A stretch of DNA of 64,000 bases, taken from the NCBI GenBank assembly GCA_021399345.1, contig JAAFKI010000045.1:32001-96000 (forward strand), written 5' to 3'. Both the position numbers and the translations under genes were made by a program. The notes beneath the pieces are model-generated. The model was not told where the DNA came from. It saw only the letters and a list, made by a program, of their open reading frames with translations, and searched no databases. Source of the DNA: Candidatus Heimdallarchaeota archaeon (GTDB lineage: Archaea > Asgardarchaeota > Heimdallarchaeia > Heimdallarchaeales > Heimdallarchaeaceae). Positions within the stretch are counted from its first letter, which is position 1. Every line of letters starts with the position of its first letter. Of the stretch, positions 1-15,763 are shown piece after piece.

Positions 1-505
1 AAGTTCCGTAAGGTTCTGGTGCGATAAATACTTGTTCAATCAAGATTTTCATCTGTTTTGATTCACCAGTAGCATCATTTCGAACCTTAATTTCGTGAGT
101 TCCTTTGAGACCTCTACTTAATTCCTTACTCTCATCAACACCAGTTGCGATGGGAACACCTGTAGCGACTACAAATTGTTCATAACTGGATTTCATAATA
201 AGACTCAAAATAGCTTTCAAAGCTAGAAGACTATTTTGAATTGATTTCATCTTCCCTTCTGAAGCTAAAGGCTTTCTGATCTCACTCTGCAATCTAGCTA
301 ATTCACCTATGTAAATTTCATGTCCCTTTGCATCTTCTATGATAAGATTGTTTAGCCAACTTTTATCAGAAGACATACCTTGCCAACCAGGATTAGGTGT
401 TCCTATAACAGAAGGAATCCTATACTTCAAATCTCCTGAAGTAAGTTTTATTGTGCTTGTTCCTAAATCAATTCCAACAGCATTTGTCATTGGTGCGATA
501 GGCAT
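1..505 (-). CDS. ParM/StbA-like actin-fold ATPase (N-terminal part; runs off the window start)
   Basis: Not in the ORF track. Manual translation from ATG at 505: MPIAPMTNAVGIDLGTSTIK...IPSVIG...IYIGELA...VVATGVP...VFIAPEPYGT, showing the phosphate-1 motif GIDLG, TGxP and the connect-1 PE motif of ParM/MreB-like proteins. Confidence 0.85.
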   Translation of the reverse strand, partial: MPIAPMTNAVGIDLGTSTIKLTSGDLKYRIPSVIGTPNPGWQGMSSDKSWLNNLIIEDAKGHEIYIGELARLQSEIRKPLASEGKMKSIQNSLLALKAILSLIMKSSYEQFVVATGVPIATGVDESKELSRGLKGTHEIKVRNDATGESKQMKILIEQVFIAPEPYGT

Positions 506-727
506 ATTTTTCACCACAGTTTTTATCTCATGATTTCATTATTTAAACCATTTGTAAGTTCACAAGCAAAGTTAATCACCAAGCTCTTTGCACTTACTGT
601 ATTTCATTCTAATATACTTAAATTACTATAAAAGCTCGAGGTTCAATTCCATAGTTTTTTATTCCAATTATTAAAATGTAAAAAGCATAAATTTAAAGGT
701 TTCAACGCTTTAAAGTTAATCATAAGA

Positions 728-754
728 TTATATACCACTGGAAAAAGTATATAA
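728..754. promoter_or_regulatory. Inverted repeat TTATATAC-N11-GTATATAA; back-to-back TATA-like boxes between the divergent actin-like gene and ORF 794
   Basis: Perfect 8-bp inverted repeat; the purine run GAAAAA before the + strand TATA resembles a BRE. Confidence 0.45.
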
Positions 755-793
755 ATGCATGTGCTATTTTACGGCTAGCACACGTAAACCCAG

Positions 794-1366
794 GTGATAA
801 TTATGGGCATATTTCAGCAAGATATGGACGAACTAGAGGTGAGGGCCCAGATTGATCGTGTCCTACGACAATCAGCTCAACTATTTACAACTGAGAATGG
901 TAAAAGAGTTCGTTTAAACGAAGCAATTCGTTTGCGAGAATTTAATGCAGTTATGGGGTTGATTATAGCTTATAGTGCAGGTGCTTTCTTAAGCGTCGAC
1001 CGATTTAGAATCGAAGATGCACATCCCATCCGCTATAAAAGAATCATAAACAGATTAAACTGTTATAGTGGTCAAGTAAACTCAGCTTTAATGCTTGAGT
1101 TATTACGTCTAAGGGATCAAACTAAGATAAGCAAATATGAACTAATTAGAGTAGTTCAGAGCAAATACTTTAATCACAAACCTGTTGGGACTAGAGATAT
1201 CACTGAATCTCTTAACAGAATGTTAAGAAAAACAATGGACGAATATTTCAGCTTTGAGAATAGATATTTCAGAAGAGGCCCATTCGAACTTCGTATAGTT
1301 GAAGTTCCACGCAACACCCCATACGAATTAGCAAAAATTAGCGTAGATAACGTAATTCAATTCTAA
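794..1366 (+). CDS. Hypothetical basic (Arg-rich) helical protein
   Basis: 190-aa ORF with an upstream TATA box; no recognised motif. Confidence 0.7.
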   Translation: MIIMGIFQQDMDELEVRAQIDRVLRQSAQLFTTENGKRVRLNEAIRLREFNAVMGLIIAYSAGAFLSVDRFRIEDAHPIRYKRIINRLNCYSGQVNSALMLELLRLRDQTKISKYELIRVVQSKYFNHKPVGTRDITESLNRMLRKTMDEYFSFENRYFRRGPFELRIVEVPRNTPYELAKISVDNVIQF

Positions 1367-1472
1367 ACACTCATCTCTTTTGTAAGGAAGTTGTCTTATC
1401 TTTTTTTGCTATTCAATGTTTAAAATCAATCTAATTATTATAATGGATTTAAAACTGGAAAAGAAAGGAGTT

Positions 1473-2231
1473 TCAGATGTTCTGGACGTATTCCAATCTT
1501 TGTTCTACAGCTAATTGAGTGAGTTTTTGAATAGGTTTAACAATCAACCAAACTGAATCTGGTCTCTTATCTATTCGTAATCTATTACTATCATCAAAAT
1601 GCTCATCTCTTTTTGGAGATGTTAGGATAGAAAGTAATTCATTCCTTGCATTTAAACAGCTTCCAGTTAATACTAAGTTTGCGGCTTTATCACTATGAAT
1701 AGCACCTTCATCAAGTAGATTTTGGATAATATCTCTTTTATCAAGTCTTTCCTCAGTGGGTAAATCAGATTTGTTGATATAAGCAACTACAGGAATCTCA
1801 GATCCAAATTTCTCACCTACTATTTCCTTAGCTTCCTTAATAATCGCTTCATTTTGCTCCTTTGCTGTTTTTTCGAAGTTCAAAAATAGAATTACTGCAT
1901 CGACACCTTTCATGACAATATCTCTCTGAACCTTGTGTCTTTCTTCTCCAGGAACTGTCCAGAGTTGGTATCGCAATCTATCAAAATTATTTCCTTTAAA
2001 TGGAGGTGTTTGAAAGACACCTTGATCAAAAAATACTGTACGACCTGAATCATCTTGTATTTTTGTTAATGACGAAACAATAGTTTTTGGATTCTCCATT
2101 CTTCTGAGTGCATTAAAAACTGTCAACATGCTTGTTTTACCACTCATCGGAGGTCCAAACAGAACTATCTTAATTGTTGGTTTTCCTTCCCTATCAACTG
2201 AAAAAAGGTTAGATAACTCTAGTTGACTCAT
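1473..2231 (-). CDS. MglA-like small GTPase (paralog 1)
   Basis: G1 GPPMSGKTS, G2 RTVFFD, G3 TVPGE, G4 NKSD, G5 SCL. Confidence 0.9.
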   Translation of the reverse strand: MSQLELSNLFSVDREGKPTIKIVLFGPPMSGKTSMLTVFNALRRMENPKTIVSSLTKIQDDSGRTVFFDQGVFQTPPFKGNNFDRLRYQLWTVPGEERHKVQRDIVMKGVDAVILFLNFEKTAKEQNEAIIKEAKEIVGEKFGSEIPVVAYINKSDLPTEERLDKRDIIQNLLDEGAIHSDKAANLVLTGSCLNARNELLSILTSPKRDEHFDDSNRLRIDKRPDSVWLIVKPIQKLTQLAVEQRLEYVQNI

Positions 2232-2319
2232 ATGTATTTGTTTAGAGAATTAGTATATAAAATTATACATAATTTTGTACATTTTTTTGGTGTTTAAATA
2301 TAGTGATGTAATTACTAAT

Positions 2320-2465
2320 CTGAAGGATTGTAGACATGCACCAACTTTATGGTGATCCTCGGGTTTACATCCAACAATCATCCAAAAGCGAACTGTAAGC
2401 ATCTTTGCGTAAAGATGTGGGCGGGGTAGGAGGGGATGTGGCGTCCCCATGATTTGCCTTAAGCA
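2320..2465 (+). ncRNA. Candidate structured small RNA
   Basis: GC-rich island with hairpins CACCA/TGGTG, CATCTTT/AAAGATG, GGGGA/TCCCC and GATTGT/ACAATC; TTTAAATA box at ~2293. Confidence 0.45.
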
Positions 2466-2547
2466 CTTCTAAAGAATTTGTACAAAATTCATGTCATAGT
2501 AAATGGTAGTTTAATAAATGAAAAAAACGAGATTAGAAGAGGAAGTT

Positions 2548-4800
2548 CTATCTTTTACTTCTTCTTTTAATTGTTACAATTGATATACCAATACTGATAA
2601 TGATTAATCCCATCCAGAATGAAAAATCTAATGAAGCTGTTGGAAGTGGATTACCTTCAATAGCAAATGTAGCCGAATCTACAGATTTTACAGTTCGACC
2701 CGCATATCTGAAGCTTACTTTAATATGATAGTCTCCGAAATACATACTGAGATCGATTAATCCACTTTCCCAGTCATTTGTAGATGGATTATAAAGCATT
2801 GAAAATGCATCTACAGTTACTCCTTGTGAATTATATAAGAGAATCATTACAAGAACATTTTCTGAGAATGAACTCCACGCATCAAGTTGAGTGTAGCTTG
2901 CATTTCCCCTTACATAAATTCCCGTTGATTCACCGTTCAAAGTAAAAGAAGGTTCTTCAACAGCTAGAATGTGATCAATATTAATCAGATCTACAGCTGA
3001 TTCACCATATTGTGATGATCCAGATGCGATAATTGATACATCATATATTTCTTCATCAAAGGATTGCAAGGATAGTGTAATGTACCAATCAAGAGATACC
3101 GAATAATTCATAGCAAGAATTGTATAAATTGTTGAGGACCCATCAATCTGAAATTGAACATACACATCTACTCCACTTGAATCAGTAATAGGTGTTGAAT
3201 TTTCATCTAGAATAACTACATTATACAACGAAAAATTCCAATTTCCACTTACATAATTATAGCTAAGAGAATCTACTGTAAGAGGGCTACCTGGTAATAA
3301 CGTAAAATCAATATAATCTGTAGTTCCCAAACCAAATTGACTTCCAACTGAGATTATAGGTGTTGATGATGACATCAAACTAGTTATTATATATACCTCA
3401 TCTACAAGCGTTCCATTCAAGAATTCAACGATATTCACATCTTGAATGCTTTTAGTTACCGTCCATCCATTTATATCATGAACAGCGAAAGACATTCCCA
3501 AATAAGTTGAAGCTGGATCAGTTGGTTCAAACATAAGGTAATCAGGAGGTGAATTCAGTTTTGCAACATAAAGCCCATAAAAACGATTTAATTTATTAAA
3601 TTCAGATGTTGGAACTGTTGAAATTAATTCATAGTCCATCGGAATATCGAGATTATTAAAACCATATAGTCCTCCTCCGAAAGATGTATCATCTACATAT
3701 AATGCCGTAGCCCAATTTAAGAATAGATCATTAAACTCAATAGAATATCCGACACTAGCAAGAGCATTTTCAATACCAGGTGCTCCACCAGCTGTTTCAT
3801 TGACTAAGAAGGTAACAGCATCAACCCCATATTTCTCAGCTAAATAGAAAATAAAGAGATACGCGCTTCCATAATCAATACGTACATCCTTTCCACCAGA
3901 ACTCTCGTAATTCCAATATAATAATGAGTCATCAATATTATGGGCAAAATAATCTCGAGCAAAAACTGTCAAATTATTAATGACATCGTATCCATTGAGA
4001 TATTTGGCAAGTTCAGCACAACCTTCATCAACCCACCAAAATTCATCAGTATCATAATTAAAATGAATTAAATGTTGAAACTCATGAGCTAAAACTCCAT
4101 AAGTTGTAAAATAATCAACATAAACCATTTCTCTACTGTTTGATGTCAGTCCAGGTGATTCATTATTTGGATCAAAATATCCTGCAACTCCACCATCTAG
4201 ATCAGATATTAAAATTGTTACATGAAAATCACCATCGATATCTCCAAGATATCCATCAGGATCACCAAAGTAGAGAATATCATTAGGGTATATCTTTGTT
4301 TCAAATTCATCTCTCCAAGATTCTGCTTTTGTTCTTGCATTAGATAGTCCTTCTGAAGAAACTAAGCTGCTCAAAATATACACATAACTGTTTGCACCTA
4401 TAGCTAGTAATTGAGCTTCTTTCAGCACATATGTATAAGGAGCTGAGAGAAAGGAATCAATTATCCAGAAATCTCGTTTTTCATCTATAACATCTGCTTT
4501 GATTGGAACACTGATTTTTGGCAAATCATAAACAGGTTGAGGATTTTCTGACAAATATTTGTATTTCAGAACTTGTGTGGGATTTGTAGGATCACTTTTG
4601 AATAAATCGTAAGCAATCTTTGCATATTCATTTTGCTCTGAATCAAATTCAGTGTCAATTCCTAAAGTGGTATAAGAGTTCCCTAAGAGAACTATAAATG
4701 CCAAACTAATACTAAAATAAGTTATCTTTCTCGTTCTCTTATTCATTAAAAGTGACCTCTTTAGACTATATGTGACAAATATCATTAAAAATGTTGACAA
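2548..4800 (-). CDS. Secreted, membrane-anchored zinc metallopeptidase (M30/M6-like); likely start 4746
   Basis: Signal peptide, AGYF, LAHEFQHLIH (HExxH), downstream WVDEG, C-terminal TM helix plus KRRSKR. Confidence 0.85.
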   Translation of the reverse strand: MSTFLMIFVTYSLKRSLLMNKRTRKITYFSISLAFIVLLGNSYTTLGIDTEFDSEQNEYAKIAYDLFKSDPTNPTQVLKYKYLSENPQPVYDLPKISVPIKADVIDEKRDFWIIDSFLSAPYTYVLKEAQLLAIGANSYVYILSSLVSSEGLSNARTKAESWRDEFETKIYPNDILYFGDPDGYLGDIDGDFHVTILISDLDGGVAGYFDPNNESPGLTSNSREMVYVDYFTTYGVLAHEFQHLIHFNYDTDEFWWVDEGCAELAKYLNGYDVINNLTVFARDYFAHNIDDSLLYWNYESSGGKDVRIDYGSAYLFIFYLAEKYGVDAVTFLVNETAGGAPGIENALASVGYSIEFNDLFLNWATALYVDDTSFGGGLYGFNNLDIPMDYELISTVPTSEFNKLNRFYGLYVAKLNSPPDYLMFEPTDPASTYLGMSFAVHDINGWTVTKSIQDVNIVEFLNGTLVDEVYIITSLMSSSTPIISVGSQFGLGTTDYIDFTLLPGSPLTVDSLSYNYVSGNWNFSLYNVVILDENSTPITDSSGVDVYVQFQIDGSSTIYTILAMNYSVSLDWYITLSLQSFDEEIYDVSIIASGSSQYGESAVDLINIDHILAVEEPSFTLNGESTGIYVRGNASYTQLDAWSSFSENVLVMILLYNSQGVTVDAFSMLYNPSTNDWESGLIDLSMYFGDYHIKVSFRYAGRTVKSVDSATFAIEGNPLPTASLDFSFWMGLIIISIGISIVTIKRRSKR

Positions 4801-4817
4801 TCAAGCAATAATTCTAT

Positions 4818-5648
4818 CTATAATTTCAGTGAGATTGCTCTAACTATAATGCTTAACAGATAATTAGCTCCAATCAATACAACAGCTAAAATTACCAGTT
4901 TTACTGCTGTTAGATTTCTTTTGGCATGTTTGTTTGCAGCTGTCATCTCTTTTCCCCAGAAGGTTTCATCTTCTCTCTTGAATTCCCAATAATCAAGATA
5001 ATCCTCTCTATCTGATTCAGGATCACAAATCACTCGGATTTTGTCTTTAATTTCTTTTCCTTTTGCATCATGAGTTATAGCACTGATAAATAAAGATACA
5101 GCTTTTTTTGGAGGAGTTTTGAAGACTTTGGGAATATAGATTATTTTTTTTTCTTTGTTAATTTTACTTGGAATAGCTTTATCATTGACATATACAGAAA
5201 TGGTTTCAGGATCTATTCTGATCTCATCATATCTAATTCTGATTTGAAACTCAGATGGCGTAACTGCCTGATCATCTGGTTCAATAATTCTCATTTTTGG
5301 AGGCACATTATATCTACTCAAACCCCCCATACACCCTCCAAGTATCAGAGATGCAGCAGGGAGATAAAGAAGGGTTGTTTCGAAGATTGCTCCACCATTA
5401 AATGCAATAAGTTCACCTGAATAGAAGTATCCTCCCATAACTACGAAAACAGAGGTTTCGAAAAAGAAACCACCAACAGTTACTTCTAGAAGTACCCAGA
5501 CAAGGATTTCTATTACAATAACTATGCCACCCCATTTCAAACAAAAAAGAGCTATTAGTTTTATTTTTTCTTTCAGAGTAAGACTCAAGAAATCTATTTC
5601 TACCTTTTCTGTTTTATCTTTTCTAAATGGAAACCGCATTTCAATCAC
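4818..5648 (-). CDS. Hypothetical membrane protein with a central beta-rich (Ig-like) soluble domain
   Basis: Several hydrophobic segments; overlaps the upstream gene. Confidence 0.7.
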   Translation of the reverse strand: MIEMRFPFRKDKTEKVEIDFLSLTLKEKIKLIALFCLKWGGIVIVIEILVWVLLEVTVGGFFFETSVFVVMGGYFYSGELIAFNGGAIFETTLLYLPAASLILGGCMGGLSRYNVPPKMRIIEPDDQAVTPSEFQIRIRYDEIRIDPETISVYVNDKAIPSKINKEKKIIYIPKVFKTPPKKAVSLFISAITHDAKGKEIKDKIRVICDPESDREDYLDYWEFKREDETFWGKEMTAANKHAKRNLTAVKLVILAVVLIGANYLLSIIVRAISLKL

Positions 5649-5940
5649 TTACAATGTACTTAAACAGAGCAAAAGCATAAAAGAACATCAGTAAAGCTAT
5701 GTGAACTCCGAAAATTGTCCCAACTGAACTATCATATGAACCAACAGCAATGTTTCCTGCAACAGCATAAATAAAGACAGTTCCCCCGCCAAATAATAAC
5801 GCTACACTCATTGCAAGAGCAGCCATCATTTTTATAACAACTAGATCAAATAATCTGTCTGGTTTTAGTTTATCTGGTGATGGCTTTCTTTCGGCCTTTC
5901 TTATCCTTGAGAGTGACTTCTTTTTATTCATTCTTATCAC
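5641..5940 (-). CDS. Small two-TM membrane protein
   Basis: Basic N-terminus, two hydrophobic helices, operon position. Confidence 0.65.
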   Translation of the reverse strand: MIRMNKKKSLSRIRKAERKPSPDKLKPDRLFDLVVIKMMAALAMSVALLFGGGTVFIYAVAGNIAVGSYDSSVGTIFGVHIALLMFFYAFALFKYIVSD

Positions 5941-6035
5941 TAATTTGGGTACATCTGCTTTGTTTGGTATATTTTATTTTCAGTTATGAAAATTTGAATT
6001 TCACTTACCACAAGATATAACTGTACTCTCTTTTT

Positions 6036-6911
6036 TTATTTCTTTGCTTTTTTCACATCATTAGAATTGTTTTGATGTAAAACGACTTTACCATCTTCTT
6101 CATCAATAAAAATCTCTTGTTGAACTTTTAATTTATCAATTACATGTCTTGGTAGCTGAATCCCGCCATAACGGTCAAGATACACATGATGCATATCACG
6201 GATTGTTTTTAGTTTTTCAGTAGGTGAATAACCAGAGATTCTACCATCTACAATTTGAATCAATCTATCTGTTGATTTAGCAACATCGAAATCATGAGTA
6301 ACCATAATCGCGGTAATTCCATGGGTTTCATTTAGGTGTTTAAAGTATTTTAAAAGCTCTCCTGCAGTTTTAGAATCAAGTTCTCCAGTTGGTTCATCTG
6401 CAAGCAAAAGTATTGGATTATGGGCGAGAGCACAAGCCAAACCTGCTCTTTGTACTTCTCCACCAGATAACTGGCTAGGTTTATGTTTTAGCCTTTTCGC
6501 TAAACCAACTTCACCTAGTAGTTCTTTTGCATCTTTTATTCGCTGTTCTCGCGGAATACCAAGTAATCGCATAGGAATTTCCACGTTTTCTAGGATATTG
6601 ATCTCCCAAATTAAGTTTCTATTAGGAATTTGCCACAAAGTTCCTACTTTAAATCGTCTATAAAGGCTTCTTGAATCCTCAGTTAGTTGGTCCAAACGAA
6701 CACCCCCCACACTAATTTGACCAGCAGAAGGATCAGTCATCCCTGCTAGAACAAGCAGAAGAGTGGTTTTTCCGCTTCCTGAAGGACCAATGATTGAAAT
6801 GAATTCTCCTTGATTAATTTCAAGTTCTATCCCTCTTAAAGCAGGAACTCTTACATTGAATTCTTTAGTGTAGTAGATTTTTATCAAGTCTCGTACTTCT
6901 ATAAATGCCAT
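6036..6911 (-). CDS. ABC transporter ATP-binding protein (LolD/MacB type) with a C-terminal AbrB-like domain
   Basis: GPSGSGKTT, LSGGE, LLADEPTG, MVTHD; C-terminal LDRYGGIQLP. Confidence 0.95.
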   Translation of the reverse strand: MAFIEVRDLIKIYYTKEFNVRVPALRGIELEINQGEFISIIGPSGSGKTTLLLVLAGMTDPSAGQISVGGVRLDQLTEDSRSLYRRFKVGTLWQIPNRNLIWEINILENVEIPMRLLGIPREQRIKDAKELLGEVGLAKRLKHKPSQLSGGEVQRAGLACALAHNPILLLADEPTGELDSKTAGELLKYFKHLNETHGITAIMVTHDFDVAKSTDRLIQIVDGRISGYSPTEKLKTIRDMHHVYLDRYGGIQLPRHVIDKLKVQQEIFIDEEDGKVVLHQNNSNDVKKAKK

Positions 6912-6919
6912 TTTATCAC

Positions 6920-9900
6920 CTAAGCAGATTGTCTTAATTCAGTTCCAATTTCTTGTTTTGAAGAACTTATAGTGGGTATTGCTGCTCCAACCAAAGCAGT
7001 TACAAACAGGATTGATAATACTAATGCTATTTGCCCAACTGGAAATGCCATTGAATACGGTGGAATTGTTCTATTAATTGCTAATACTGCCATAAGCATT
7101 GTTGAAGAAATATACCCAACAATTAGACCTATAATTGTTGTGAAAGCGAGTAAGGAGACATACACTGAGATATAATACTTCATCAGTTGTCTGGAAGAAA
7201 TACCTATGGCTTTCATTGTAGCTATTTCTTTTGATTTATCGATTAATTGAATGGAAGCGAACAATGCTAGAATTATTGCATTAATAGTGAAAGACATTAG
7301 GAGTGTTGAGTTAATAGCTGAGTAAAGAATTGATGATCTGGGGCTATCGGGGCTCACGAATACTTCGCCTTCAACATCAAATATGAAACCAGTACTAAAG
7401 GAGGCGATCTCAACAGCAACATCAGATATAATTGCTCCATCAGCGACTTTAACAAGAAGATAACTTATCACATCGAAAGGAGCTACTTGAATGTAGTTCA
7501 AGAAATTGATTGGTGCTACAAAGTGAAAAACCTGTGATCGGACATTAGTAGTTAATATGTCATTAACAAGAATTGGCCAGTACTTGAAAGTATCCATGAT
7601 TCTAAGAGTTATATTCTCATCCCAATAAGGAGTACCGAGTATAGGACGCATGCTTTCATTATAAGCTCTATATGTTATTGGTTTATCTTCCCATTGTTCG
7701 ATATTGTAAGCAGCTATTTCGTCCTCTTGAGCAAGTACAGATTTTGGTTCTAGATCATTAGAAGTACTAAGCTCATTCATAAGTTCAGTAAACTCAAATT
7801 TACTAAAATCATCTCTAAAATATGCCGTTTTATTATAACTAATTGGATCAACAATTAAGACCGAATATGTTAAGGCAAGATCGCCTTGAACATTATCTAA
7901 GTTAATCAAACGAACAATTGAAGTAGATTCAACAGAAGTAAGATTATCTATTGTTGCTTTTAGCGTGTGATCATCTATAGGAAAATCTCGTATCATTATA
8001 TCTGACCCAACATCATAATAAGCACTATTCAGGTTGTAATTTTGATAAGTGAAAGGAACAACAATTGATGCAACAACGAGAGAAAATGATAAACTGAGAA
8101 TTATTGAAGACCTAGCAAAACTTTTCTGATATCTACTTATCTCTCTTACACTGAGAGAAGAAATGTCCATTTTCAATTTAGTAGTTAATTTAATCAATAA
8201 GCGAGAAAATAATGGTAAAAATCTTTGGAATAAGAGTATTAAACCAAATATCATTAAAATTGTTGCAGGAATGCCTATATATCGTGCAGTAGATTCCTTA
8301 TGGGATGTTAATATTGGTAATTGATAAACTATCCATACTGTACCTGCTAAGAGTAATAGAACAATATCTACAAAGTACTTATAGAAGCGAGGTAGTGACT
8401 TCTCTACTTTACCATAATCATCAATATTCCTCTTTCTCAGTAGCGTCATCGTATTGAAAAGTTGAATAAACAATATTGCTCCAATACTGCCTAAGACGGC
8501 TACGAATACCGAAGAGAGCTCTATTTTCAAAGGAGAAGAAGTGTTTGAAAATTTCAAGAAACCTGAGCTTCTAGTTAATAAGGATGCAATAGGCGTTCCT
8601 AGAAAAATACCCACAAACAAAGAAACTCCTCCTACAATTAGCGATTCTAAGGCCAAATAAGAACCGATTTCTCCTCTATTACTTCCTCTTTCAGTTAAGA
8701 TTGTTAATTGTCTATCTCTTTTCTTTCTTACCAGATTGGCAGCATACACTGTCAGTATAATAGTTAAAGCCATAATGGGAGCAAGAAAAGCAAACATGAA
8801 AGTTTGATATAATCCATATTCATCTTTGAAACTTTCCATTAAATCGACGAGATAAGAATTAATCCGAGCATTATTAATTCCACTTAAAGTTTGATACCAT
8901 TCTTTTAGTTGGATTCCTATTGTTTTGAGAATAGTTATTTCTGTATCAATTTGAAAAGCATCAATTAAGGATACATCATAAAATAAATTTTCATAAACAG
9001 TTCCTTGACTATATGTTAGTGCAATATCATTGTTGATATTTGCAGCTGGTATCCATCGGGTAAACAAAGCTAAATTATCTTCTAATTCCAGCACATATTC
9101 AATTGGGATACCAATTGAAGATTCAATCACATTATACACAGGAAGATCGTCCAAAAAGACAATACCTGTAATATTGACAGTTGTTTGAGCTGAAGGAACT
9201 GTAAGAGAAGCACTTTTGTCTAAAGCAACAGGGATAAAGAGTGGAATTATAGAACCATTTCTAAAAGTTGTATGGTTATAAAAATCTCTAGTCATTAGAG
9301 CCAAAGCCTCATTATCACTCTCAGGTGCATGACCGTATGCAATATTACTCTCAATGAAATACCTCAATTTGAGATCGGATCCATACAATTGCATATTCGG
9401 TAAACTCGTGATATTAGTTGTAGGGTCAGTTGATTGCGTGAACGATGCTAATTTAAAAAACAAATCTCTTTGTGGAACCCGGTGAGTCATATCAATGAAT
9501 TCCATAGCATATTTAGCAACATTATCAATACTGTTGTATTGATGATATGATGCTTCAATTGGTATACCTGCTATTTCAACTTGGATGAATCTTCGAGGTT
9601 CATCAGCCAAATAAAGATCAAAAGCTTGGAATTGATAAGAATAAATAAAGAAAACATATTGTGTTATCACAGATACTGCAAGAGTTACACCTATTGCCGA
9701 AATAAGTGCATATTTCCACCCAGCTTTAAAGAGTGGTTTGAAGAGATGAAGACCAGGAGAGAACAGGAGAAGAAAAACATCTACTATAAGGAGAACTATG
9801 ACTAAAACGGGTAATAGAAGCCATAAAATAACATCCATGACAATCTGAAAATCAGGTTTTCCACTTAATTTTGCCTCGGATAAGTTTCGAAAATAAGTCT

Positions 9901-10042
9901 TAGTTAAAATGAAGAAGTTTTGTAAAATGTAACGTCGTGAATTTCTAGGTATGTCATTCGCTCGCTTCATTATCCTCAAACAATTATAAACACCTATAAG
10001 CCTTTTTCTTTCACCAGTTACGCACTTATAATTCTTACTCAC
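6920..10042 (-). CDS. FtsX/MacB-like ABC permease with two permease domains; true start probably downstream
   Basis: Two FtsX-type motifs (RDRQLTILTERG; KEIATMKAIGIS), large extracytoplasmic loops, adjacent ATPase. Confidence 0.88.
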   Translation of the reverse strand: MSKNYKCVTGERKRLIGVYNCLRIMKRANDIPRNSRRYILQNFFILTKTYFRNLSEAKLSGKPDFQIVMDVILWLLLPVLVIVLLIVDVFLLLFSPGLHLFKPLFKAGWKYALISAIGVTLAVSVITQYVFFIYSYQFQAFDLYLADEPRRFIQVEIAGIPIEASYHQYNSIDNVAKYAMEFIDMTHRVPQRDLFFKLASFTQSTDPTTNITSLPNMQLYGSDLKLRYFIESNIAYGHAPESDNEALALMTRDFYNHTTFRNGSIIPLFIPVALDKSASLTVPSAQTTVNITGIVFLDDLPVYNVIESSIGIPIEYVLELEDNLALFTRWIPAANINNDIALTYSQGTVYENLFYDVSLIDAFQIDTEITILKTIGIQLKEWYQTLSGINNARINSYLVDLMESFKDEYGLYQTFMFAFLAPIMALTIILTVYAANLVRKKRDRQLTILTERGSNRGEIGSYLALESLIVGGVSLFVGIFLGTPIASLLTRSSGFLKFSNTSSPLKIELSSVFVAVLGSIGAILFIQLFNTMTLLRKRNIDDYGKVEKSLPRFYKYFVDIVLLLLAGTVWIVYQLPILTSHKESTARYIGIPATILMIFGLILLFQRFLPLFSRLLIKLTTKLKMDISSLSVREISRYQKSFARSSIILSLSFSLVVASIVVPFTYQNYNLNSAYYDVGSDIMIRDFPIDDHTLKATIDNLTSVESTSIVRLINLDNVQGDLALTYSVLIVDPISYNKTAYFRDDFSKFEFTELMNELSTSNDLEPKSVLAQEDEIAAYNIEQWEDKPITYRAYNESMRPILGTPYWDENITLRIMDTFKYWPILVNDILTTNVRSQVFHFVAPINFLNYIQVAPFDVISYLLVKVADGAIISDVAVEIASFSTGFIFDVEGEVFVSPDSPRSSILYSAINSTLLMSFTINAIILALFASIQLIDKSKEIATMKAIGISSRQLMKYYISVYVSLLAFTTIIGLIVGYISSTMLMAVLAINRTIPPYSMAFPVGQIALVLSILFVTALVGAAIPTISSSKQEIGTELRQSA

Positions 10043-10072
10043 ATCTTGCTAGAAAGTTTATTGTCGGAATCA

Positions 10073-10131
10073 TTTGAAAATTCGAATAATTCGAATGTTA
10101 CGAAAGGTTCAAATATTCGAATAATTCAGAT
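10073..10131. repeat. Array of about seven TTCGAA-like hexamers with 8-9 bp period
   Basis: TTTGAA 10073, TTCGAA 10081, TTCGAA 10090, TACGAA 10099, TTCAAA 10108, TTCGAA 10116, TTCAGA 10125; 13-bp exact repeat ATTCGAATAATTC at 10080 and 10115. Confidence 0.7.
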
Positions 10132-10150
10132 GTTGTCTAGATAATATTTT

Positions 10151-11383
10151 GTGATCATCATGGATAAATTTGAGAAGCTGGCTTTGGAGGCAATAGAAGA
10201 GAGTAAAAGCAGTTCTTATACTCCTCAAGACCCTTTTGTCTCTTTTGGCTTTGATGCCAACCCGTTTCTTGAAACATCTATAGAAGATCTGCAGAATGAA
10301 GAATGTATTGAATCTCGTTTTAGAATGGTCATTAAATACATCAACAAGGTTCACAATAGCTTTCTTGAAAATCATAATAAAAAGAAAAAAGATTCTGATA
10401 CCGTGATAATGGATGGTGTTTTGTATGGCTCAAGTCAGTCAGGTGTTAGTACATTAATTTCCTTAGTTCATCAATACTTGATAAAAGTTCACAAAGAATT
10501 AGCGAACACTGTTTTCTCAGATGCTAAAGAATTAGTTGAATTTGAAGACAACCAATATTCTATCGCAAAAACAATCCAGAATTTTAGAAATTTCATAGGA
10601 AGTCAGAATACAGGAGGAGATACTATTTCACTACTCATCATAGATCATGCTGATTTCTTAATTGATTTCTTTGAAGACTTCAGATACGCACTAGATAGAG
10701 ATTTTCAGAATACACCCATAGTATTTATTTTCTCTCAAGGTGGTTGGACCCGATTAAAGAATCAGCTTGCGTTTTCTGATTATGATTTAATCAATAGTAT
10801 GGTACCAAGTCAACAAATTAATTCCCTAAATAAAGACGAGATATTCGAGATATTAAGTTTAAAATTAAGCAAGAATAAGCAAATTCAAAATCCTTTCACT
10901 AAAGAAATACTTCAAACAATTTCAAAGAAAGCTAGTGGAAGTCTGTTAAATGCCATAAAAATTTGCACTAAAGTTTGTGAAGAATGTTTCTACAATGGTC
11001 TGGATATCTCTTCTTTGTCCCTAATTAATGACGTCACATCATTTCTAGCCATTGACGTGAACAAGGAGTTCTTTGATCTTGTGACACTTAATGATAATAC
11101 TCAAACATTTATTCTTGCTCTAATTACGATGAAGTCTACAGCTTATGATTTTGGTGTAACGTATGATGACATTGTTAATAATTTAGGGATACAAAAAACT
11201 TCAGCAGCCCACCATTTAAAGCAACTTCAAGAAAGACGGTATGTCATAAAAAGGACAGTGAACAGAAAAGCTTTCTACAGATTGAGAGAGGAACTTAAAA
11301 CCATATCTGATACATACTTAATGAAAAGTTTCGAACAGAAAGAAACTCATGTAAGGCTCGAAAGTATTTCTAATTTGGTTTAA
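10151..11383 (+). CDS. Degenerate AAA+ ATPase-fold protein with C-terminal winged helix (Cdc6/Orc- or ExeA-like architecture)
   Basis: FGFDANPF, Walker A-like GSSQSGVST, Walker B-like LLIIDHAD, lid ASGSL, HTH region VTYDDIVNNLGIQKTSAAHHLKQL. Confidence 0.75.
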   Translation: MIIMDKFEKLALEAIEESKSSSYTPQDPFVSFGFDANPFLETSIEDLQNEECIESRFRMVIKYINKVHNSFLENHNKKKKDSDTVIMDGVLYGSSQSGVSTLISLVHQYLIKVHKELANTVFSDAKELVEFEDNQYSIAKTIQNFRNFIGSQNTGGDTISLLIIDHADFLIDFFEDFRYALDRDFQNTPIVFIFSQGGWTRLKNQLAFSDYDLINSMVPSQQINSLNKDEIFEILSLKLSKNKQIQNPFTKEILQTISKKASGSLLNAIKICTKVCEECFYNGLDISSLSLINDVTSFLAIDVNKEFFDLVTLNDNTQTFILALITMKSTAYDFGVTYDDIVNNLGIQKTSAAHHLKQLQERRYVIKRTVNRKAFYRLREELKTISDTYLMKSFEQKETHVRLESISNLV

Positions 11384-11458
11384 CTGGTTATTCTAAAGTA
11401 TAAGCAATATTAGACTCACTTGTATCACAATTAAAAAATAAGAAAATGGAAGGAGATT

Positions 11459-13093
11459 TTACTCGGATTCTTTTTCCGCTTCTTCTTCATCATACGAAAG
11501 AGGAGGTGTTAGAAGTGCTGTTGATTCAATGAATGTTTTTCCTGCATCGATATTCTGTCGAATGTAACCAAAGTAATCCAATTCAAAGATATACTTGGAT
11601 GCAACTTCCTCAGGTACATTAAGCATTTTAGAAAGTTCTTCTTTAGCTAAAGGTCTCTGGAAATCATTGAGTAAATATAGAACTCTGTATTTAGGATCTG
11701 TATTTAGGAATGCTTCAACTGACTTTAGGGTTTTGTTTAGATTGTCAATTTTCTTTCTTAATTTTTGTATATTGAGTTCATACTGATACTTCTCTTCAGA
11801 AGAAATTGTTCCTTGTTTCTCCATTGTGAGTAAAGTGTTTTTTGTTTCTGTTAATTCTTTAATTGATTCTTCAAGTCTTGCTTTCAAATCTTCTATAGAA
11901 TCTTGTTTTTCCAAAATTTGCTCCTCAACCTTTTCTCTTTCGGTTGCAGTTTTATCAGCGATATCTCTAAGTTCCTTTATCTCAGCTTCTTTTTCAGCAA
12001 ATTGTAACATCATTTCATCAGTGGTTGTCTGTAAGTTATGTGCTTCTTGTTCCTTTGAACTGATATCTTGTTGAAGCTCAACCATAGTTTCAGCAAGTCT
12101 TTCCATATCCTCATCTCTTTGATGAATTTGTTTTCTAAGCTCTTCTACTTGACTTGAATCTTCAGCTTGATCAGCAGCTTGATCTTGAATATCTTCCATC
12201 TGTTTCTTTAATGAATCAATTTGAGATGATTTCTGTTGAATGTCGATTTTTTGATTTCTTACAGTATCTTCATGTTCAGCAATTTGATTTCTAAGATTGA
12301 AAACTGTCTGTCTTGTGCTATCAAGTTGTTTTTGTAGTTCATCGAATAATTGATCCTCTTTGGATAAAGCATCTGAAGACACAGATCTTAAACGTGTTTC
12401 CATCTCTTCAACATGTGTAGACATAGCATCTCTTTCGATTTTTAATCTATTAAATTCAGATTGGAGGTTATTCTTTTCTAGAGATAACTGATGAACGGTT
12501 CTGTCTTTGTCCATTATCACTTGGTCTCTAGCTTCAATTATAGTTTGATCCACGCCCATTGTAGTTGCTTTTTCAGATAGTTCTCCAATGGCTTGGTCTT
12601 TGCTTTTGAGAACTGACTGAATATCTGTCAATTCATTTTGTATAGAGATTGTCTCAGCTTTGAGATTTCCAATTTGATCATTTAATTCATCGATTTTCAA
12701 AGCATCGTCTTGAATTTTCGTTTCATACCCAGGAATTTTTGCAGCTTCAACCCTTAATTTCTCAAGCTCACCAAGCATTTCTTTAGTAATCATTTTCGCA
12801 TCAACATATCCCTGTTCTATACCTTGACGAATCTTACTAGTGCTTTCTGTAACAACCATTAGGTGGATATCCCGTAAAAGACCCACATAACTATCTTTGA
12901 AATTTCGAATAATTTTATCAACTTCGGATACAGAATATTGGGCTTTTCCAGGTGCTAAAGAATTACTTTTAATTTCTTCAGCCCTAGCTTTTACTTGTTC
13001 TTCTGAAGTTGTACGAATAACTCTCATTTCACCTAGAAATTTCTTTACTAGAGAGCGCACAACACCGAAAGGACTTTGCGTTTCTACAGCCAT
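11459..13093 (-). CDS. Long coiled-coil protein with C-terminal winged helix
   Basis: ~350 aa of heptad-like E/Q/K-rich sequence; C-terminal YRVLYLL..LAKEELSKMLNV..ASKYIFELDYFGYI. Confidence 0.8.
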   Translation of the reverse strand: MAVETQSPFGVVRSLVKKFLGEMRVIRTTSEEQVKARAEEIKSNSLAPGKAQYSVSEVDKIIRNFKDSYVGLLRDIHLMVVTESTSKIRQGIEQGYVDAKMITKEMLGELEKLRVEAAKIPGYETKIQDDALKIDELNDQIGNLKAETISIQNELTDIQSVLKSKDQAIGELSEKATTMGVDQTIIEARDQVIMDKDRTVHQLSLEKNNLQSEFNRLKIERDAMSTHVEEMETRLRSVSSDALSKEDQLFDELQKQLDSTRQTVFNLRNQIAEHEDTVRNQKIDIQQKSSQIDSLKKQMEDIQDQAADQAEDSSQVEELRKQIHQRDEDMERLAETMVELQQDISSKEQEAHNLQTTTDEMMLQFAEKEAEIKELRDIADKTATEREKVEEQILEKQDSIEDLKARLEESIKELTETKNTLLTMEKQGTISSEEKYQYELNIQKLRKKIDNLNKTLKSVEAFLNTDPKYRVLYLLNDFQRPLAKEELSKMLNVPEEVASKYIFELDYFGYIRQNIDAGKTFIESTALLTPPLSYDEEEAEKESE

Positions 13094-13191
13094 TTATTTC
13101 AGCTCATAGCTTACCTATACAAATTATTAAGTTAATGATATATATGAGTTTTTCAGTTGTTTTCACTCAAAACATGTCATTAAGTTGATTT

Positions 13192-13869
13192 TCAGTTCAG
13201 ATATAATGGAATGTAAAATAAACCATCTCTTAACTCATCAATTTCTTGAAGAAAGCCTGATAGTTGACTAAAGGGAATTATTGGAATTTCTGAAGAGAAC
13301 TGAATATTATGATCTCGCCAAGAGAGTATTAATGGATAAAGCTTCACTTCCCTCTTTAAAGGTAAAGCAAGTTTTGAAATAAGTTCTTCTGAAACGACAG
13401 GAAATATTTCATAAAGTACTTCTGTTCTTTCCTTTTGCTTAATAGCTGCGTCTTTCATGATAGAGGGCGAAGGATGCCTATAATGTTTGCAATCTATCAA
13501 AAATAAGTAAGGATATTTGAATGCTAGAACATCAATTTCATACTTTGTAAACTCATCCTTAAATCGAAAATTAGACAGAACTGAATAACCTAACTCATCA
13601 AAAAGAGCAGAAATAACATTCTCAAATCCTTTCCAATCAATTAACTCGAGTATGTTTTTCACACTAATACCTTGCATAAGAAGAGAAAGTAGAATTTGAC
13701 CCTTTTCTTCATCTGTGAAATCAATCTTATTGAAGAATTCTTCTAATGAATAATTCAAAGAAGTAAGAAGGGATATACACCCATCTTTTTCCACCGCTTT
13801 AAGATTAGCTACATCTACTTTATTGCGATTGAATATGTGATTCAATATAGTAACGATTGAGCTATCCAT
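13192..13869 (-). CDS. PD-(D/E)xK restriction-endonuclease-fold protein (Mrr/NERD-like)
   Basis: WKGFE..I..LF...GY, EIDVLA, LIDCKH. Confidence 0.8.
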   Translation of the reverse strand: MDSSIVTILNHIFNRNKVDVANLKAVEKDGCISLLTSLNYSLEEFFNKIDFTDEEKGQILLSLLMQGISVKNILELIDWKGFENVISALFDELGYSVLSNFRFKDEFTKYEIDVLAFKYPYLFLIDCKHYRHPSPSIMKDAAIKQKERTEVLYEIFPVVSEELISKLALPLKREVKLYPLILSWRDHNIQFSSEIPIIPFSQLSGFLQEIDELRDGLFYIPLYLN

Positions 13870-13901
13870 TCTCTATTCAACAGAAAATAAAAATGAGATT
13901 A

Positions 13902-14687
13902 TTAAGATTCGCTTTTAGCAGATTTAACTCGATGAATAATTATTTCTCGTGTTAATTGCTCAATTGGCTGAGCAGTTTTTTGAACACTTAAAGGTCTAGC
14001 TCCTTTCTTAAGACGTCCATATTCATCAAGCATTGATTTTATGTCAGGACTTCTCAAAAGAGTCATCAATTCGTTTCTAGCTTGAAGACAAGATGTTTCA
14101 ATTACTCGCATGTAGGCTTCTCCCTTATTAGCTGCAAGTTTCTTTTCAATTAATAAATCAAGAAACTTATCGGTAGGAGTACGCTCTTCAGGAGGAAGAT
14201 CTATCTTATTCAGAACGATTAAGAATGGCAAGGATTTCCCTAAGATATCTCCCTTAAGGGCAATGAGCTCAACAAGGCTTTCTACATTGTCATCCCACAT
14301 ATTTTTGCTAGGATCGAACATAAATATCAATCCGTCAGCACCCTCAAGAACAACTTTTCTTTGAATATAATGTCTTTTCTGACCAGCTACTGTCCAAACT
14401 TGGTATCTTAGCTTTGGAACACTTACACCTTGTCCTTTTGGTAATTCAAAGGTACTTTGATCATAAAAGATTGTTCTACCACTAGGGTCATCTATCTTCT
14501 TTAAGGAAGAATAGATTGTTTCAGGATCTTCAACTTTCCTTAAAACATTATAGACTGTTAACATACTTGTTTTACCTGATAATGAAGGGCCATATATAAC
14601 CAATTTTAGATACGGTACTCCAGAACCATCTACTTTGAAAATATCTTTGATTTTTAAACTGCTTGACATCGTATATCTAGCCGCCAA
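13902..14687 (-). CDS. MglA-like small GTPase (paralog 2); likely start 14669
   Basis: GPSLSGKTS, RTIFYD, TVAGQ, NKID, SCL. Confidence 0.9.
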   Translation of the reverse strand: MAARYTMSSSLKIKDIFKVDGSGVPYLKLVIYGPSLSGKTSMLTVYNVLRKVEDPETIYSSLKKIDDPSGRTIFYDQSTFELPKGQGVSVPKLRYQVWTVAGQKRHYIQRKVVLEGADGLIFMFDPSKNMWDDNVESLVELIALKGDILGKSLPFLIVLNKIDLPPEERTPTDKFLDLLIEKKLAANKGEAYMRVIETSCLQARNELMTLLRSPDIKSMLDEYGRLKKGARPLSVQKTAQPIEQLTREIIIHRVKSAKSES

Positions 14688-14840
14688 GATTTTTACTTAT
14701 TTAGGTTTTTAGGTGCGAATTCTAAAACCTTTTCTTGATTTATATATGTCCTCATTATAATGAAATTCTATTAAACTTTGCTATAATTTCACTATAAACG
14801 ATTATTCTCTAAATTCTGAACCTCAGAGGTATAAAATGGA

Positions 14841-15533
14841 TTATAGACCTTGATTATGTAGATCTAAAAGGCTTTTTTCATCTCTATGAAGGGAAACAGC
14901 TAATTCGGCAACAATTCCATCCAAAAAAGCTAAAGCAGCTTGTTCAAAAGCTGTTCCTTCAGGTGCCAATGTACTATCCAACCCCTGGTCTCTTCTTTCT
15001 AAATCAGATTTAGTTCTACCTTTGAGTTTCACGGTAACATCCCCTAATCGCCCAATAACACTCAAAGGATAACTTGTAATGACTATCACAAACGGATTAT
15101 ATATCAAATAAGTTTCTAACATAGCTTTAACTATAGGAGTTGTTCCAGATCCACTAATTACTATAATGGTATCATCTTCCCTTAAACGAGGGACAGATCT
15201 AGTGTTTGTGATAAAACGGCTTTCAACACCAAAATGCTCTAATCTTGTTTGAAACATCTGACCTACATATGCACTTCTTCCACTTGCTAGAATATAGATT
15301 CTTTTTTTGTTTTGTATATCAACCATTAACCTATCCCTAACTTGTTGAACATACTCATAATGATCAGCCATATGTTTGATATTCTCTTGTAAATTTGATA
15401 CCATCAATTCCATTGCTCTAAAAATAGCTGGTTGCTCGGTGTAACTAGCAAGATTTTTAATTTGCTCATCTGGCATGATAGGCTTCTTATTTTTTGCATT
15501 ATTTTTTTTAACCATTTTCTCACAACTTGCCAC
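14841..15533 (-). CDS. SIS-domain sugar isomerase, 6-phospho-3-hexuloisomerase-like
   Basis: SGRS, ISGSGTT, APEGTAFEQ. Confidence 0.85.
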   Translation of the reverse strand: MASCEKMVKKNNAKNKKPIMPDEQIKNLASYTEQPAIFRAMELMVSNLQENIKHMADHYEYVQQVRDRLMVDIQNKKRIYILASGRSAYVGQMFQTRLEHFGVESRFITNTRSVPRLREDDTIIVISGSGTTPIVKAMLETYLIYNPFVIVITSYPLSVIGRLGDVTVKLKGRTKSDLERRDQGLDSTLAPEGTAFEQAALAFLDGIVAELAVSLHRDEKSLLDLHNQGL

Positions 15534-15763
15534 AGGTTAACTCTCAAATGATAACTCAGAAATTATCACTTACTTCTCTTTTAAGAACACTATTGGATAG
15601 TGTTTTTAAATTACTCGGTTTTCTGAAAGAACCTCATTTGTTAATATTGTTTCACTTAAGTAAATAACAGACCCATTATTACTTAATACGATTTTTTTAT
15701 ATAAATCCCAAGAATATAAGAAATAGAGATATAAGGAGGAAAATACGATATTCATCTGATGAT

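Follow-up and report, generated by a model that had tools for sequence, protein, structure and literature searches.

MglA-type GTPases act with the actin homologue MreB in Myxococcus, and in E. coli FtsEX communicates with the actin-like FtsA. The steering of actin at membranes by small GTPases is a hallmark of eukaryotes, and archaea of the Heimdall group are their closest known prokaryotic relatives. We know of no ParMRC system linked to a GTPase. Chromosome-encoded bacterial ParMs (cParMs), such as Dh-cParM1, have been described (PMC12270681). The present work concerns a stretch of 64,000 nucleotides from a Candidatus Heimdallarchaeota archaeon (GenBank assembly GCA_021399345.1, contig JAAFKI010000045.1, positions 32,001 to 96,000; C169:32001-96000 in our contig numbering), referred to as the window. 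Its first 15 kb contain a ParM-like actin gene, two MglA-like GTPase genes (GTP1 and GTP2), a nuclease-fold gene of the NERD family, a gene for a coiled-coil/winged-helix protein (CCwH), and a gene for a degenerate AAA+/winged-helix protein (AAA+-wH) preceded by a DNA repeat array. An earlier note had proposed that these parts could form one GTPase-regulated filament, tether and DNA module.

Conserved units of the 15-kb region

The region is read here as a composite neighbourhood made up, in Heimdallarchaeaceae, of three or more units that are conserved separately, an account that is, on balance, somewhat probable. The first unit would be an envelope operon that starts with genes for an FtsX/MacB-type permease and an ATP-binding cassette (ABC) ATPase, continues with those for two small membrane proteins and an HExxH protease anchored at the surface, and ends in GTP1. 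In Ca. Heimdallarchaeum this gene row continues directly into the ParM-like actin gene. The second is a GTP2-NERD-coiled-coil/winged-helix operon, to which relatives add an NYN gene lost from the source genome. The third is a family-restricted pseudo-ATPase of Orc1/Cdc6 fold with a winged helix, whose promoter array is most likely its own operator. Gene identities, folds, motifs, operon spacing and ranges were observed, and from these we infer the protein contacts, the operator role and the direction of regulation. The genes of the region are as follows, with sizes in amino acids (aa).

1-517, minus strand: 5' half of an actin gene of the ParM/ALP (actin-like protein) type, crossing the window start (full gene at window positions -544 to 517, 353 aa)
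794-1366, plus strand: orf190, a basic 190-aa protein, divergent from the actin gene and found only in Heimdallarchaeaceae
1473-2231, minus strand: GTP1, a long-form MglA-like GTPase with the catalytic Gln of switch II changed to Glu
2548-4800, minus strand: orf750, a secreted HExxH metalloprotease anchored to the membrane by its C-terminus (NCBIfam MXAN_6640 HExxH, 2.8e-7)
4818-5940, minus strand: orf276 and orf99, two small membrane proteins with hydrophobic segments, their order kept throughout Heimdallarchaeaceae
6036-6911, minus strand: ABC transporter ATPase (Pfam ABC_tran, 7e-28)
6920-10042, minus strand: FtsX-type (MacB-like) permease of 1040 aa (Pfam FtsX, 5e-15, two stretches; ~10 hydrophobic segments)
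10067-10127, no strand: seven TTCGAA-like hexamers in a phased array that lies 29-87 bp ahead of the AAA+-wH start
10151-11383, plus strand: AAA+-wH, a degenerate AAA+ protein of Orc1/Cdc6 fold with a C-terminal ArsR-like winged helix, found only in Heimdallarchaeaceae
11459-13093, minus strand: CCwH, 544 aa, with an N-terminal head, a ~350-aa coiled coil, a winged helix and an acidic tail
13192-13869, minus strand: NERD/Mrr_cat protein of the PD-(D/E)xK type, its catalytic set intact
13902-14687, minus strand: GTP2, a long-form MglA-like GTPase that keeps the Arg finger and the catalytic Gln

Upstream of the actin gene lie genes for a CDP-alcohol phosphatidyltransferase (CDP-OH transferase), a phosphatidylserine decarboxylase (PSD) and an S8 protease, and beyond GTP2 come SIS and then MMPL genes.

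The source genome (3.27 Mb, 88.6% complete) belongs to Heimdallarchaeaceae, in agreement with the Asgard origin given by the earlier note. Presence was counted in a class set of 83 genomes and a phylum set of 301 genomes from 70 genera. Families are numbered, with f1 standing for Heimdallarchaeaceae (five genera compared), f6 for another Heimdall order and the remaining f-numbers for further families; genomes, loci and contigs carry G-, L- and C-numbers, respectively. Two f1 genomes are closed, those of Ca. Heimdallarchaeum aukensis PM71 (CP084166.1) and Ca. H. endolithica PR6 (CP084167.1). A literature search found no paper describing these gene rows. An Rfam scan of window positions 1-16000 gave no match at E <= 0.1, and sigma-70 promoter and terminator scans stayed at chance level, using models that are not applicable to archaea.

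All five f1 genera carry PSD, CDP-OH transferase and actin, orf190, the row from GTP1 to FtsX, AAA+-wH, the CCwH-NERD-GTP2 row, and SIS and MMPL within 20-30 kb. The full set is syntenic only inside f1, where the plainly unrelated flanking genes (PSD, CDP-OH transferase, S8 protease, SIS and MMPL) are equally syntenic. Synteny within f1 therefore cannot on its own show function, and the region is accordingly read as a composite neighbourhood. In G044, G045 and G046, three blocks (FtsX to GTP1, GTP2-NERD-coiled coil, and array with AAA+-wH) have each moved as a whole, by inversion or relocation. The segment from orf190 to FtsX is inverted in G044; in both G045 and G046 the GTP2 block is inverted, and 4 kb has been inserted. 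The links that recur beyond f1 are those of actin with a GTPase (in two orders), of a GTPase with NERD and CCwH, and of a GTPase with an ABC transporter. The gene-neighbourhood and co-occurrence analysis suggested in the earlier note has a divided outcome: pairwise links are found, including actin-GTPase in a second order (f6), but the full set occurs in one family only. The actin-GTPase link is the most interesting of these recurrent pairs.

The long MglA-like GTPases and their conserved gene neighbours

GTP1 and GTP2 are paralogous at 41% identity, and the closest solved structures to both are those of MglA (~3e-13, versus 1e-4 for Rab, in phmmer searches of the PDB), which bears out their initial description as paired MglA-type GTPases. 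Both contain the G1 (GxxxxGKT) and G4 (NKxD) motifs of a Ras-like G domain. Within G3 a Thr replaces Asp (WTVAGQ and WTVPGE in the two proteins), and switch I reads SGRT in each, with the intrinsic Arg finger of MglA. The residue roles assigned here are taken from work on MglA, in which Arg53 is cited (PMC10933270). The catalytic Gln of switch II is kept in GTP2, and Glu stands at this position in GTP1, where PGEERH is found in all f1 and f2 orthologues. On the strength of this exchange, GTP1 is probably a slow or locked switch.

An inter-switch insertion and a C-terminal extension of ~70 aa, with the conserved motif GRLxxxxRPxSV..PIExLTR, are present in both GTP1 and GTP2 and missing from short MglA-like paralogues. 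This long form is found in 81 of the 83 genomes of the class. In the GTPase tree, GTP2-type proteins make up a slow-evolving, widespread clade (f1-f5 and f7), while GTP1 belongs to a derived, fast-evolving clade of f1, f2 and f4. A second long-form paralogue in f3 looks like a separate duplicate. None of the open reading frames between window positions -2000 and 18685 matches Roadblock/LC7 (MglB). The short canonical MglA-like paralogue of the source genome is located elsewhere, on contig C41. In f4 and part of f3, ~4 kb separate the GTP2 orthologue from a short canonical MglA-like GTPase (L024:13002-13989; L030:5021-5647), which at two f4 loci (L024, L025) is directly preceded by a 111-aa gene that would fit a Roadblock/MglB protein by size alone.

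The protease and ABC genes between the two GTPases, set aside in the earlier note as unrelated, appear instead to be conserved operon partners of GTP1. The protease, orf750, has a signal-like N-terminus, an HEFQH motif and a C-terminal transmembrane segment. Gaps within the envelope unit from FtsX to orf750 measure 9-95 bp. The gap between GTP1 and orf750 (2231-2548) is 317 bp and contains a GC-richer island, in which no Rfam match was found at E <= 0.1. At the equivalent position, G041 carries an IS605 OrfB/TnpB insertion (L166:6499-7719). A GTP1 orthologue is paired with an orf750 orthologue in f2. In G045 and G046 the genes FtsX, ABC, orf99, orf276, orf750, GTP1 and actin follow one another in this order, all codirectional. 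An ABC partner is also found for GTP2 in f3, where the genes after it encode an ABC ATPase and a permease of ~750 aa that carries an Rce1-like domain of the CAAX protease family (L032:4302-8112; L029:8995-12769); the long GTPases themselves have no CAAX end.

GTP2, NERD and CCwH form a conserved operon, with gaps of 32 bp between GTP2 and NERD and 98 bp between NERD and CCwH. GTP2 and NERD are direct neighbours in every f1 genome and in two genera of f3; the two are 2.6 kb apart in f2, and further apart or on different contigs elsewhere. The proposed nuclease fold stands, with a Pfam NERD score of 24.7 bits (cut-off 22.1) and residues E111, D113, D126-C-K128 and Q145 invariant in nine orthologues, from which the PD-(D/E)xK catalytic motif is judged intact. 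AF1548, whose function is unknown, was the only match of NERD in a profile search of the PDB. NERD is present in 236 of the 301 phylum genomes and in 58 of 70 genera, mostly in single copy.

CCwH likewise has the predicted architecture, with conserved non-coiled domains at the N- and C-termini flanking the rod. The head comprises 100 aa and found no match in a PDB profile search. CCwH was also considered as an SMC/Rad50-type ATPase. This assignment was rejected, as the matches are at coiled-coil level only and far below the cut-offs, and the termini are a head and a winged helix. Homologues of the head and winged helix lie next to or near NERD in f1, f3, f6, f8, f9, f20 and f23, and across these seven Asgard families the rod differs greatly in length. 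Most relatives (f1, f3, f6, f9) carry a 177-aa NYN-domain gene (Pfam 1.7e-11) after the coiled-coil gene, for example at L058:714-1247 and L064:1374-1922. No NYN gene is present at the corresponding site of the window, the 76-bp gap at 11383-11459, and tblastn found no copy in the source genome at its 88.6% completeness. The NERD/coiled-coil pair is Asgard-wide and probably has a housekeeping role.

The ParM-like actin gene, AAA+-wH and its array

The actin-fold gene noted at the window start is confirmed by its Pfam domains ALP_N (5e-17) and MreB-like_C (8e-18), although the full gene extends beyond the portion first described. The NCBIfam ParM model matches at 4e-19, below its curated cut-off, and Dh-cParM1 is matched in the PDB at 4e-5. 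Nucleotide-binding motifs are invariant across 13 relatives. The gene is found in 42 of the 83 class genomes (f1, 28/30; f2, 1/1; f6, 12/12), and the same survey did not find it in f3, f4, f5 or f7. A second, divergent copy of 60% identity is located on another contig of the f1 genome G044, with no GTPase near (L148:9920-11035).

The immediate neighbours of the actin gene are the CDP-OH transferase gene and orf190, with no ParR-like adaptor beside it. The intergenic region between actin and orf190 (517-794) contains no tandem repeat, and the only array lies 9.5 kb away and is tied to AAA+-wH. orf190 gave no family match in domain library scans, and its orthologues, confined to f1, shift position inside the region. 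Its AlphaFold2 model is unusable (predicted local distance difference test, pLDDT, 50); residues 93-160 form a helix-helix-helix-hairpin at pLDDT 57-74, which at most hints at a winged helix.

At the source locus actin and GTP1 lie close together with orf190 between them, and in G045 and G046 GTP1 leads codirectionally into actin with a gap of ~115 bp. Co-occurrence was uninformative as a test of the actin-GTPase link because the GTPase is near-universal in the class. In f6, a tight row of actin, a ~230-aa protein, a ~372-aa protein, a GTPase and a ~1400-aa DEAD/SNF2 helicase (L159:10004-18092; L158, L160-L165) was found in eight public contigs and in 5/5 genomes, and its actin and long-form GTPase belong to the same families as those of the source locus. 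A single long-form GTPase is encoded in each f6 genome, with an actin paralogue ~2 kb upstream of it. There are three actin matches per genome in f6, and the two clades sampled represent a duplication within f6. The ~230-aa protein, which is adaptor-like, has a Lys/Ser-rich head and the invariant tail PSLDDAIGAI, and the ~372-aa protein has a Cys-rich end (CxxC...CxxC in L159). Homologues of these two proteins were not found in the source genome, and a profile of the adaptor-like protein, in which a ribbon-helix-helix may be present, had no match in the PDB. The f2 contig with actin shows no GTPase within 3-4 kb.

AAA+-wH proved to be degenerate, as first described. Its AlphaFold model (pLDDT 77) matches 2qby_A (4e-10), 7jgr, 1w5s and 2v1u over the full length in Foldseek, which are archaeal Cdc6/Orc1 and eukaryotic ORC/Cdc6 proteins, and the modelled architecture is that of an AAA+ base, a lid and a C-terminal winged helix. 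In 12/12 orthologues the Walker A motif is G-[VMIT]-[ST]-T, without its Lys, and the Walker B motif is IDHAD (D-H). The C-terminus matches ArsR-type winged helix-turn-helix families in 9/12 members. The gene is present in 28/30 genomes of f1 and 0/16 of f2-f4. It is fast-evolving, with 55-97% identity within a genus versus 88% or more for GTP2. Residues 27-39 (window 10220-10270) form an invariant DPFxxFGFxxNPF, which is like the FGL..PF start of ExeA-type ATPases; its resemblance to the DPF/NPF short linear motifs of eukaryotes is a mere curiosity. In one congeneric genome (G004:C97:215098-216733, L122), a second fragment comes after AAA+-wH at the end of a contig; it shares 58% identity with the last 120 residues of AAA+-wH and represents a partial tandem duplication.

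The periodic array reported upstream of AAA+-wH is real. Its seven TTCGAA-like units, three of them exact, have a period of 9 (8-9 bp spacing), and these 6-bp palindromes fill the 109-bp intergenic region. The array ends ~30 bp before the AAA+-wH start codon and overlaps the expected promoter. It is the sole run of six phased near-hexamers in the 3.27-Mb genome. All five f1 genera have 3-6 hexamers at 9-bp spacing upstream of AAA+-wH, including cases with no more than 36% protein identity and cases with a different adjacent gene. Since the genome has no second such array, and this one moves together with AAA+-wH, it is most likely the operator of that gene and not a centromere. Judged from its position only, it would be bound by the protein's own winged helix in autoregulation.

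Alternative explanations and comparison with known systems

The earlier note had combined these parts into one integrated system, in which a GTPase-regulated ParM-like filament is tethered by CCwH and AAA+-wH to the TTCGAA array as a centromere-like site. In its favour, local inversions have left all the parts inside a stretch of 15-30 kb in each of five genera, the phasing of the array resembles that of iterons or parC sites, and f6 again links an actin to a GTPase, in a row that also encodes an adaptor-like protein and a large helicase. However, this reading fails because its parts differ in age, the array is not with actin and no ParR- or parC-like part lies by the actin gene. It also fails because the GTPases and the nuclease/coiled-coil pair persist in f3, f4 and f5 without actin or AAA+-wH. 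No counterpart of the f6 adaptor or its 372-aa companion was found in the source genome, and the unrelated flanks share the synteny, leaving the integrated system quite improbable. Synteny by descent only, with no functional relation outside the two tight operons and a coincidental proximity of actin and GTPase in f1, is an unlikely explanation. The unrelated flanks keep the same order family-wide, the immediate neighbours of actin vary between genera (orf190, FtsX, GTP1), and the f2 actin contig has no GTPase close by. Against this, the sole long-form GTPase of f6, in another order, is always in the actin operon, and both GTPase paralogues of f1 retain defined partners through rearrangements.

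Two further alternatives address single units. AAA+-wH and its array might be a replication-origin or plasmid-type initiator module, possibly the relic of an integrated element, given the Orc1/Cdc6 fold, the tandem phased repeats adjoining the gene and its fast evolution. This is very improbable, as the Walker A Lys and the Walker B Glu are missing in all orthologues, the intergenic region of just 109 bp leaves no space for an unwinding element, the chromosomal position is stable in five genera with no adjacent integrase, and the GC skew does not change at the site. The row of GTPase, nuclease, coiled-coil protein and, in relatives, NYN could in turn be an anti-virus defence system, since a nuclease, a coiled-coil protein and an NTPase come together in it, and since it shows weak PADLOC similarity to the coiled-coil and PD-(D/E)xK parts of defence proteins. 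We find this barely credible and dropped it. The PADLOC matches reflect generic coiled-coil, winged-helix and PD-(D/E)xK likeness only, the chromosomal context is stable, and a mostly single-copy NERD gene in so many genera of the phylum is the reverse of the patchy distribution seen for defence genes.

The composite neighbourhood is thus the preferred reading. Under it, both long MglA-type GTPases would be nucleotide switches, each recruiting or gating its own set of partners. GTP1 may work on the cytoplasmic side of the ABC/FtsX-protease complex, perhaps jointly with an actin filament, and GTP2 may act on the ancient NERD/coiled-coil nucleic-acid pair. Several points weigh against this picture. 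The f1 units stay within 20-30 kb despite several rearrangements, so that a functional tie between them is possible. Contacts between all pairs of proteins are predictions. The 317-bp gap before GTP1 is long enough to fit a separate promoter, and co-transcription of GTP1 with the envelope genes is likewise predicted. The array could be bound by another winged-helix protein, CCwH or orf190. Neither ABC nor NERD genes adjoin the GTP2-type GTPase in f5 and f7, where it lies by a Ras-like GTPase and a Sua5 family gene, so partner sets are lineage-specific.

The analysis defines a class-wide subfamily of MglA-like GTPases with a C-terminal extension, no MglB next door and named candidate partners. 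Its members are found repeatedly beside ParM-type actin, ABC-type envelope complexes and a phylum-wide nuclease/coiled-coil pair. The locus itself is corrected in three respects, with the array as an operator-like element of a pseudo-Orc1/Cdc6 protein and not an actin centromere, the ABC/protease genes placed with the GTPase, and the NERD/coiled-coil pair recognised as Asgard-wide. A bolder proposal, that Heimdallarchaeia have a dedicated long MglA-type GTPase for the control of ParM-like actin filaments at an ABC/FtsX-protease complex of the membrane, is for now distinctly unlikely. If true, it would represent a prokaryotic forerunner of the control of actin by small GTPases at the cell surface.

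Compared with MglA/MglB of Myxococcus xanthus and Thermus thermophilus (3t12, 6hjh), the long GTPases share the G3 Thr and the GRT Arg finger of switch I, and GTP2 shares the catalytic Gln. They differ in their ~70-aa C-terminal extension and inter-switch insertion, in the Glu for Gln of GTP1, and in the lack of a Roadblock/MglB gene in the window. Their partners are also different, being an ABC/FtsX complex, an actin of ParM and not MreB type, and a nuclease/coiled-coil pair. The actin is of the ALP/ParM type as in type II ParMRC systems and is chromosomal like the cParMs. Unlike ParMRC, it is archaeal, has no adjacent ParR-like adaptor or parC repeats and is linked to a GTPase.

AAA+-wH shares the base-lid-winged-helix plan of Orc1/Cdc6 initiators (2qby, 1w5s, 2v1u), and has repeats beside its gene, but lacks the Walker A Lys and Walker B Glu and is confined to one family. 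Its repeats are 6-bp palindromes in a 9-bp phase within a promoter, in contrast to the origin recognition box (ORB) elements around an unwinding region. The envelope operon resembles the type VII ABC mechanotransmission systems FtsEX and MacB in combining an FtsX-domain permease, an ABC ATPase and an extracytoplasmic hydrolase. Here, however, the permease is a double-FtsX protein of 1040 aa, an HExxH protease with its own transmembrane anchor takes the place of the hydrolase, and a small GTPase stands at the end of the operon.

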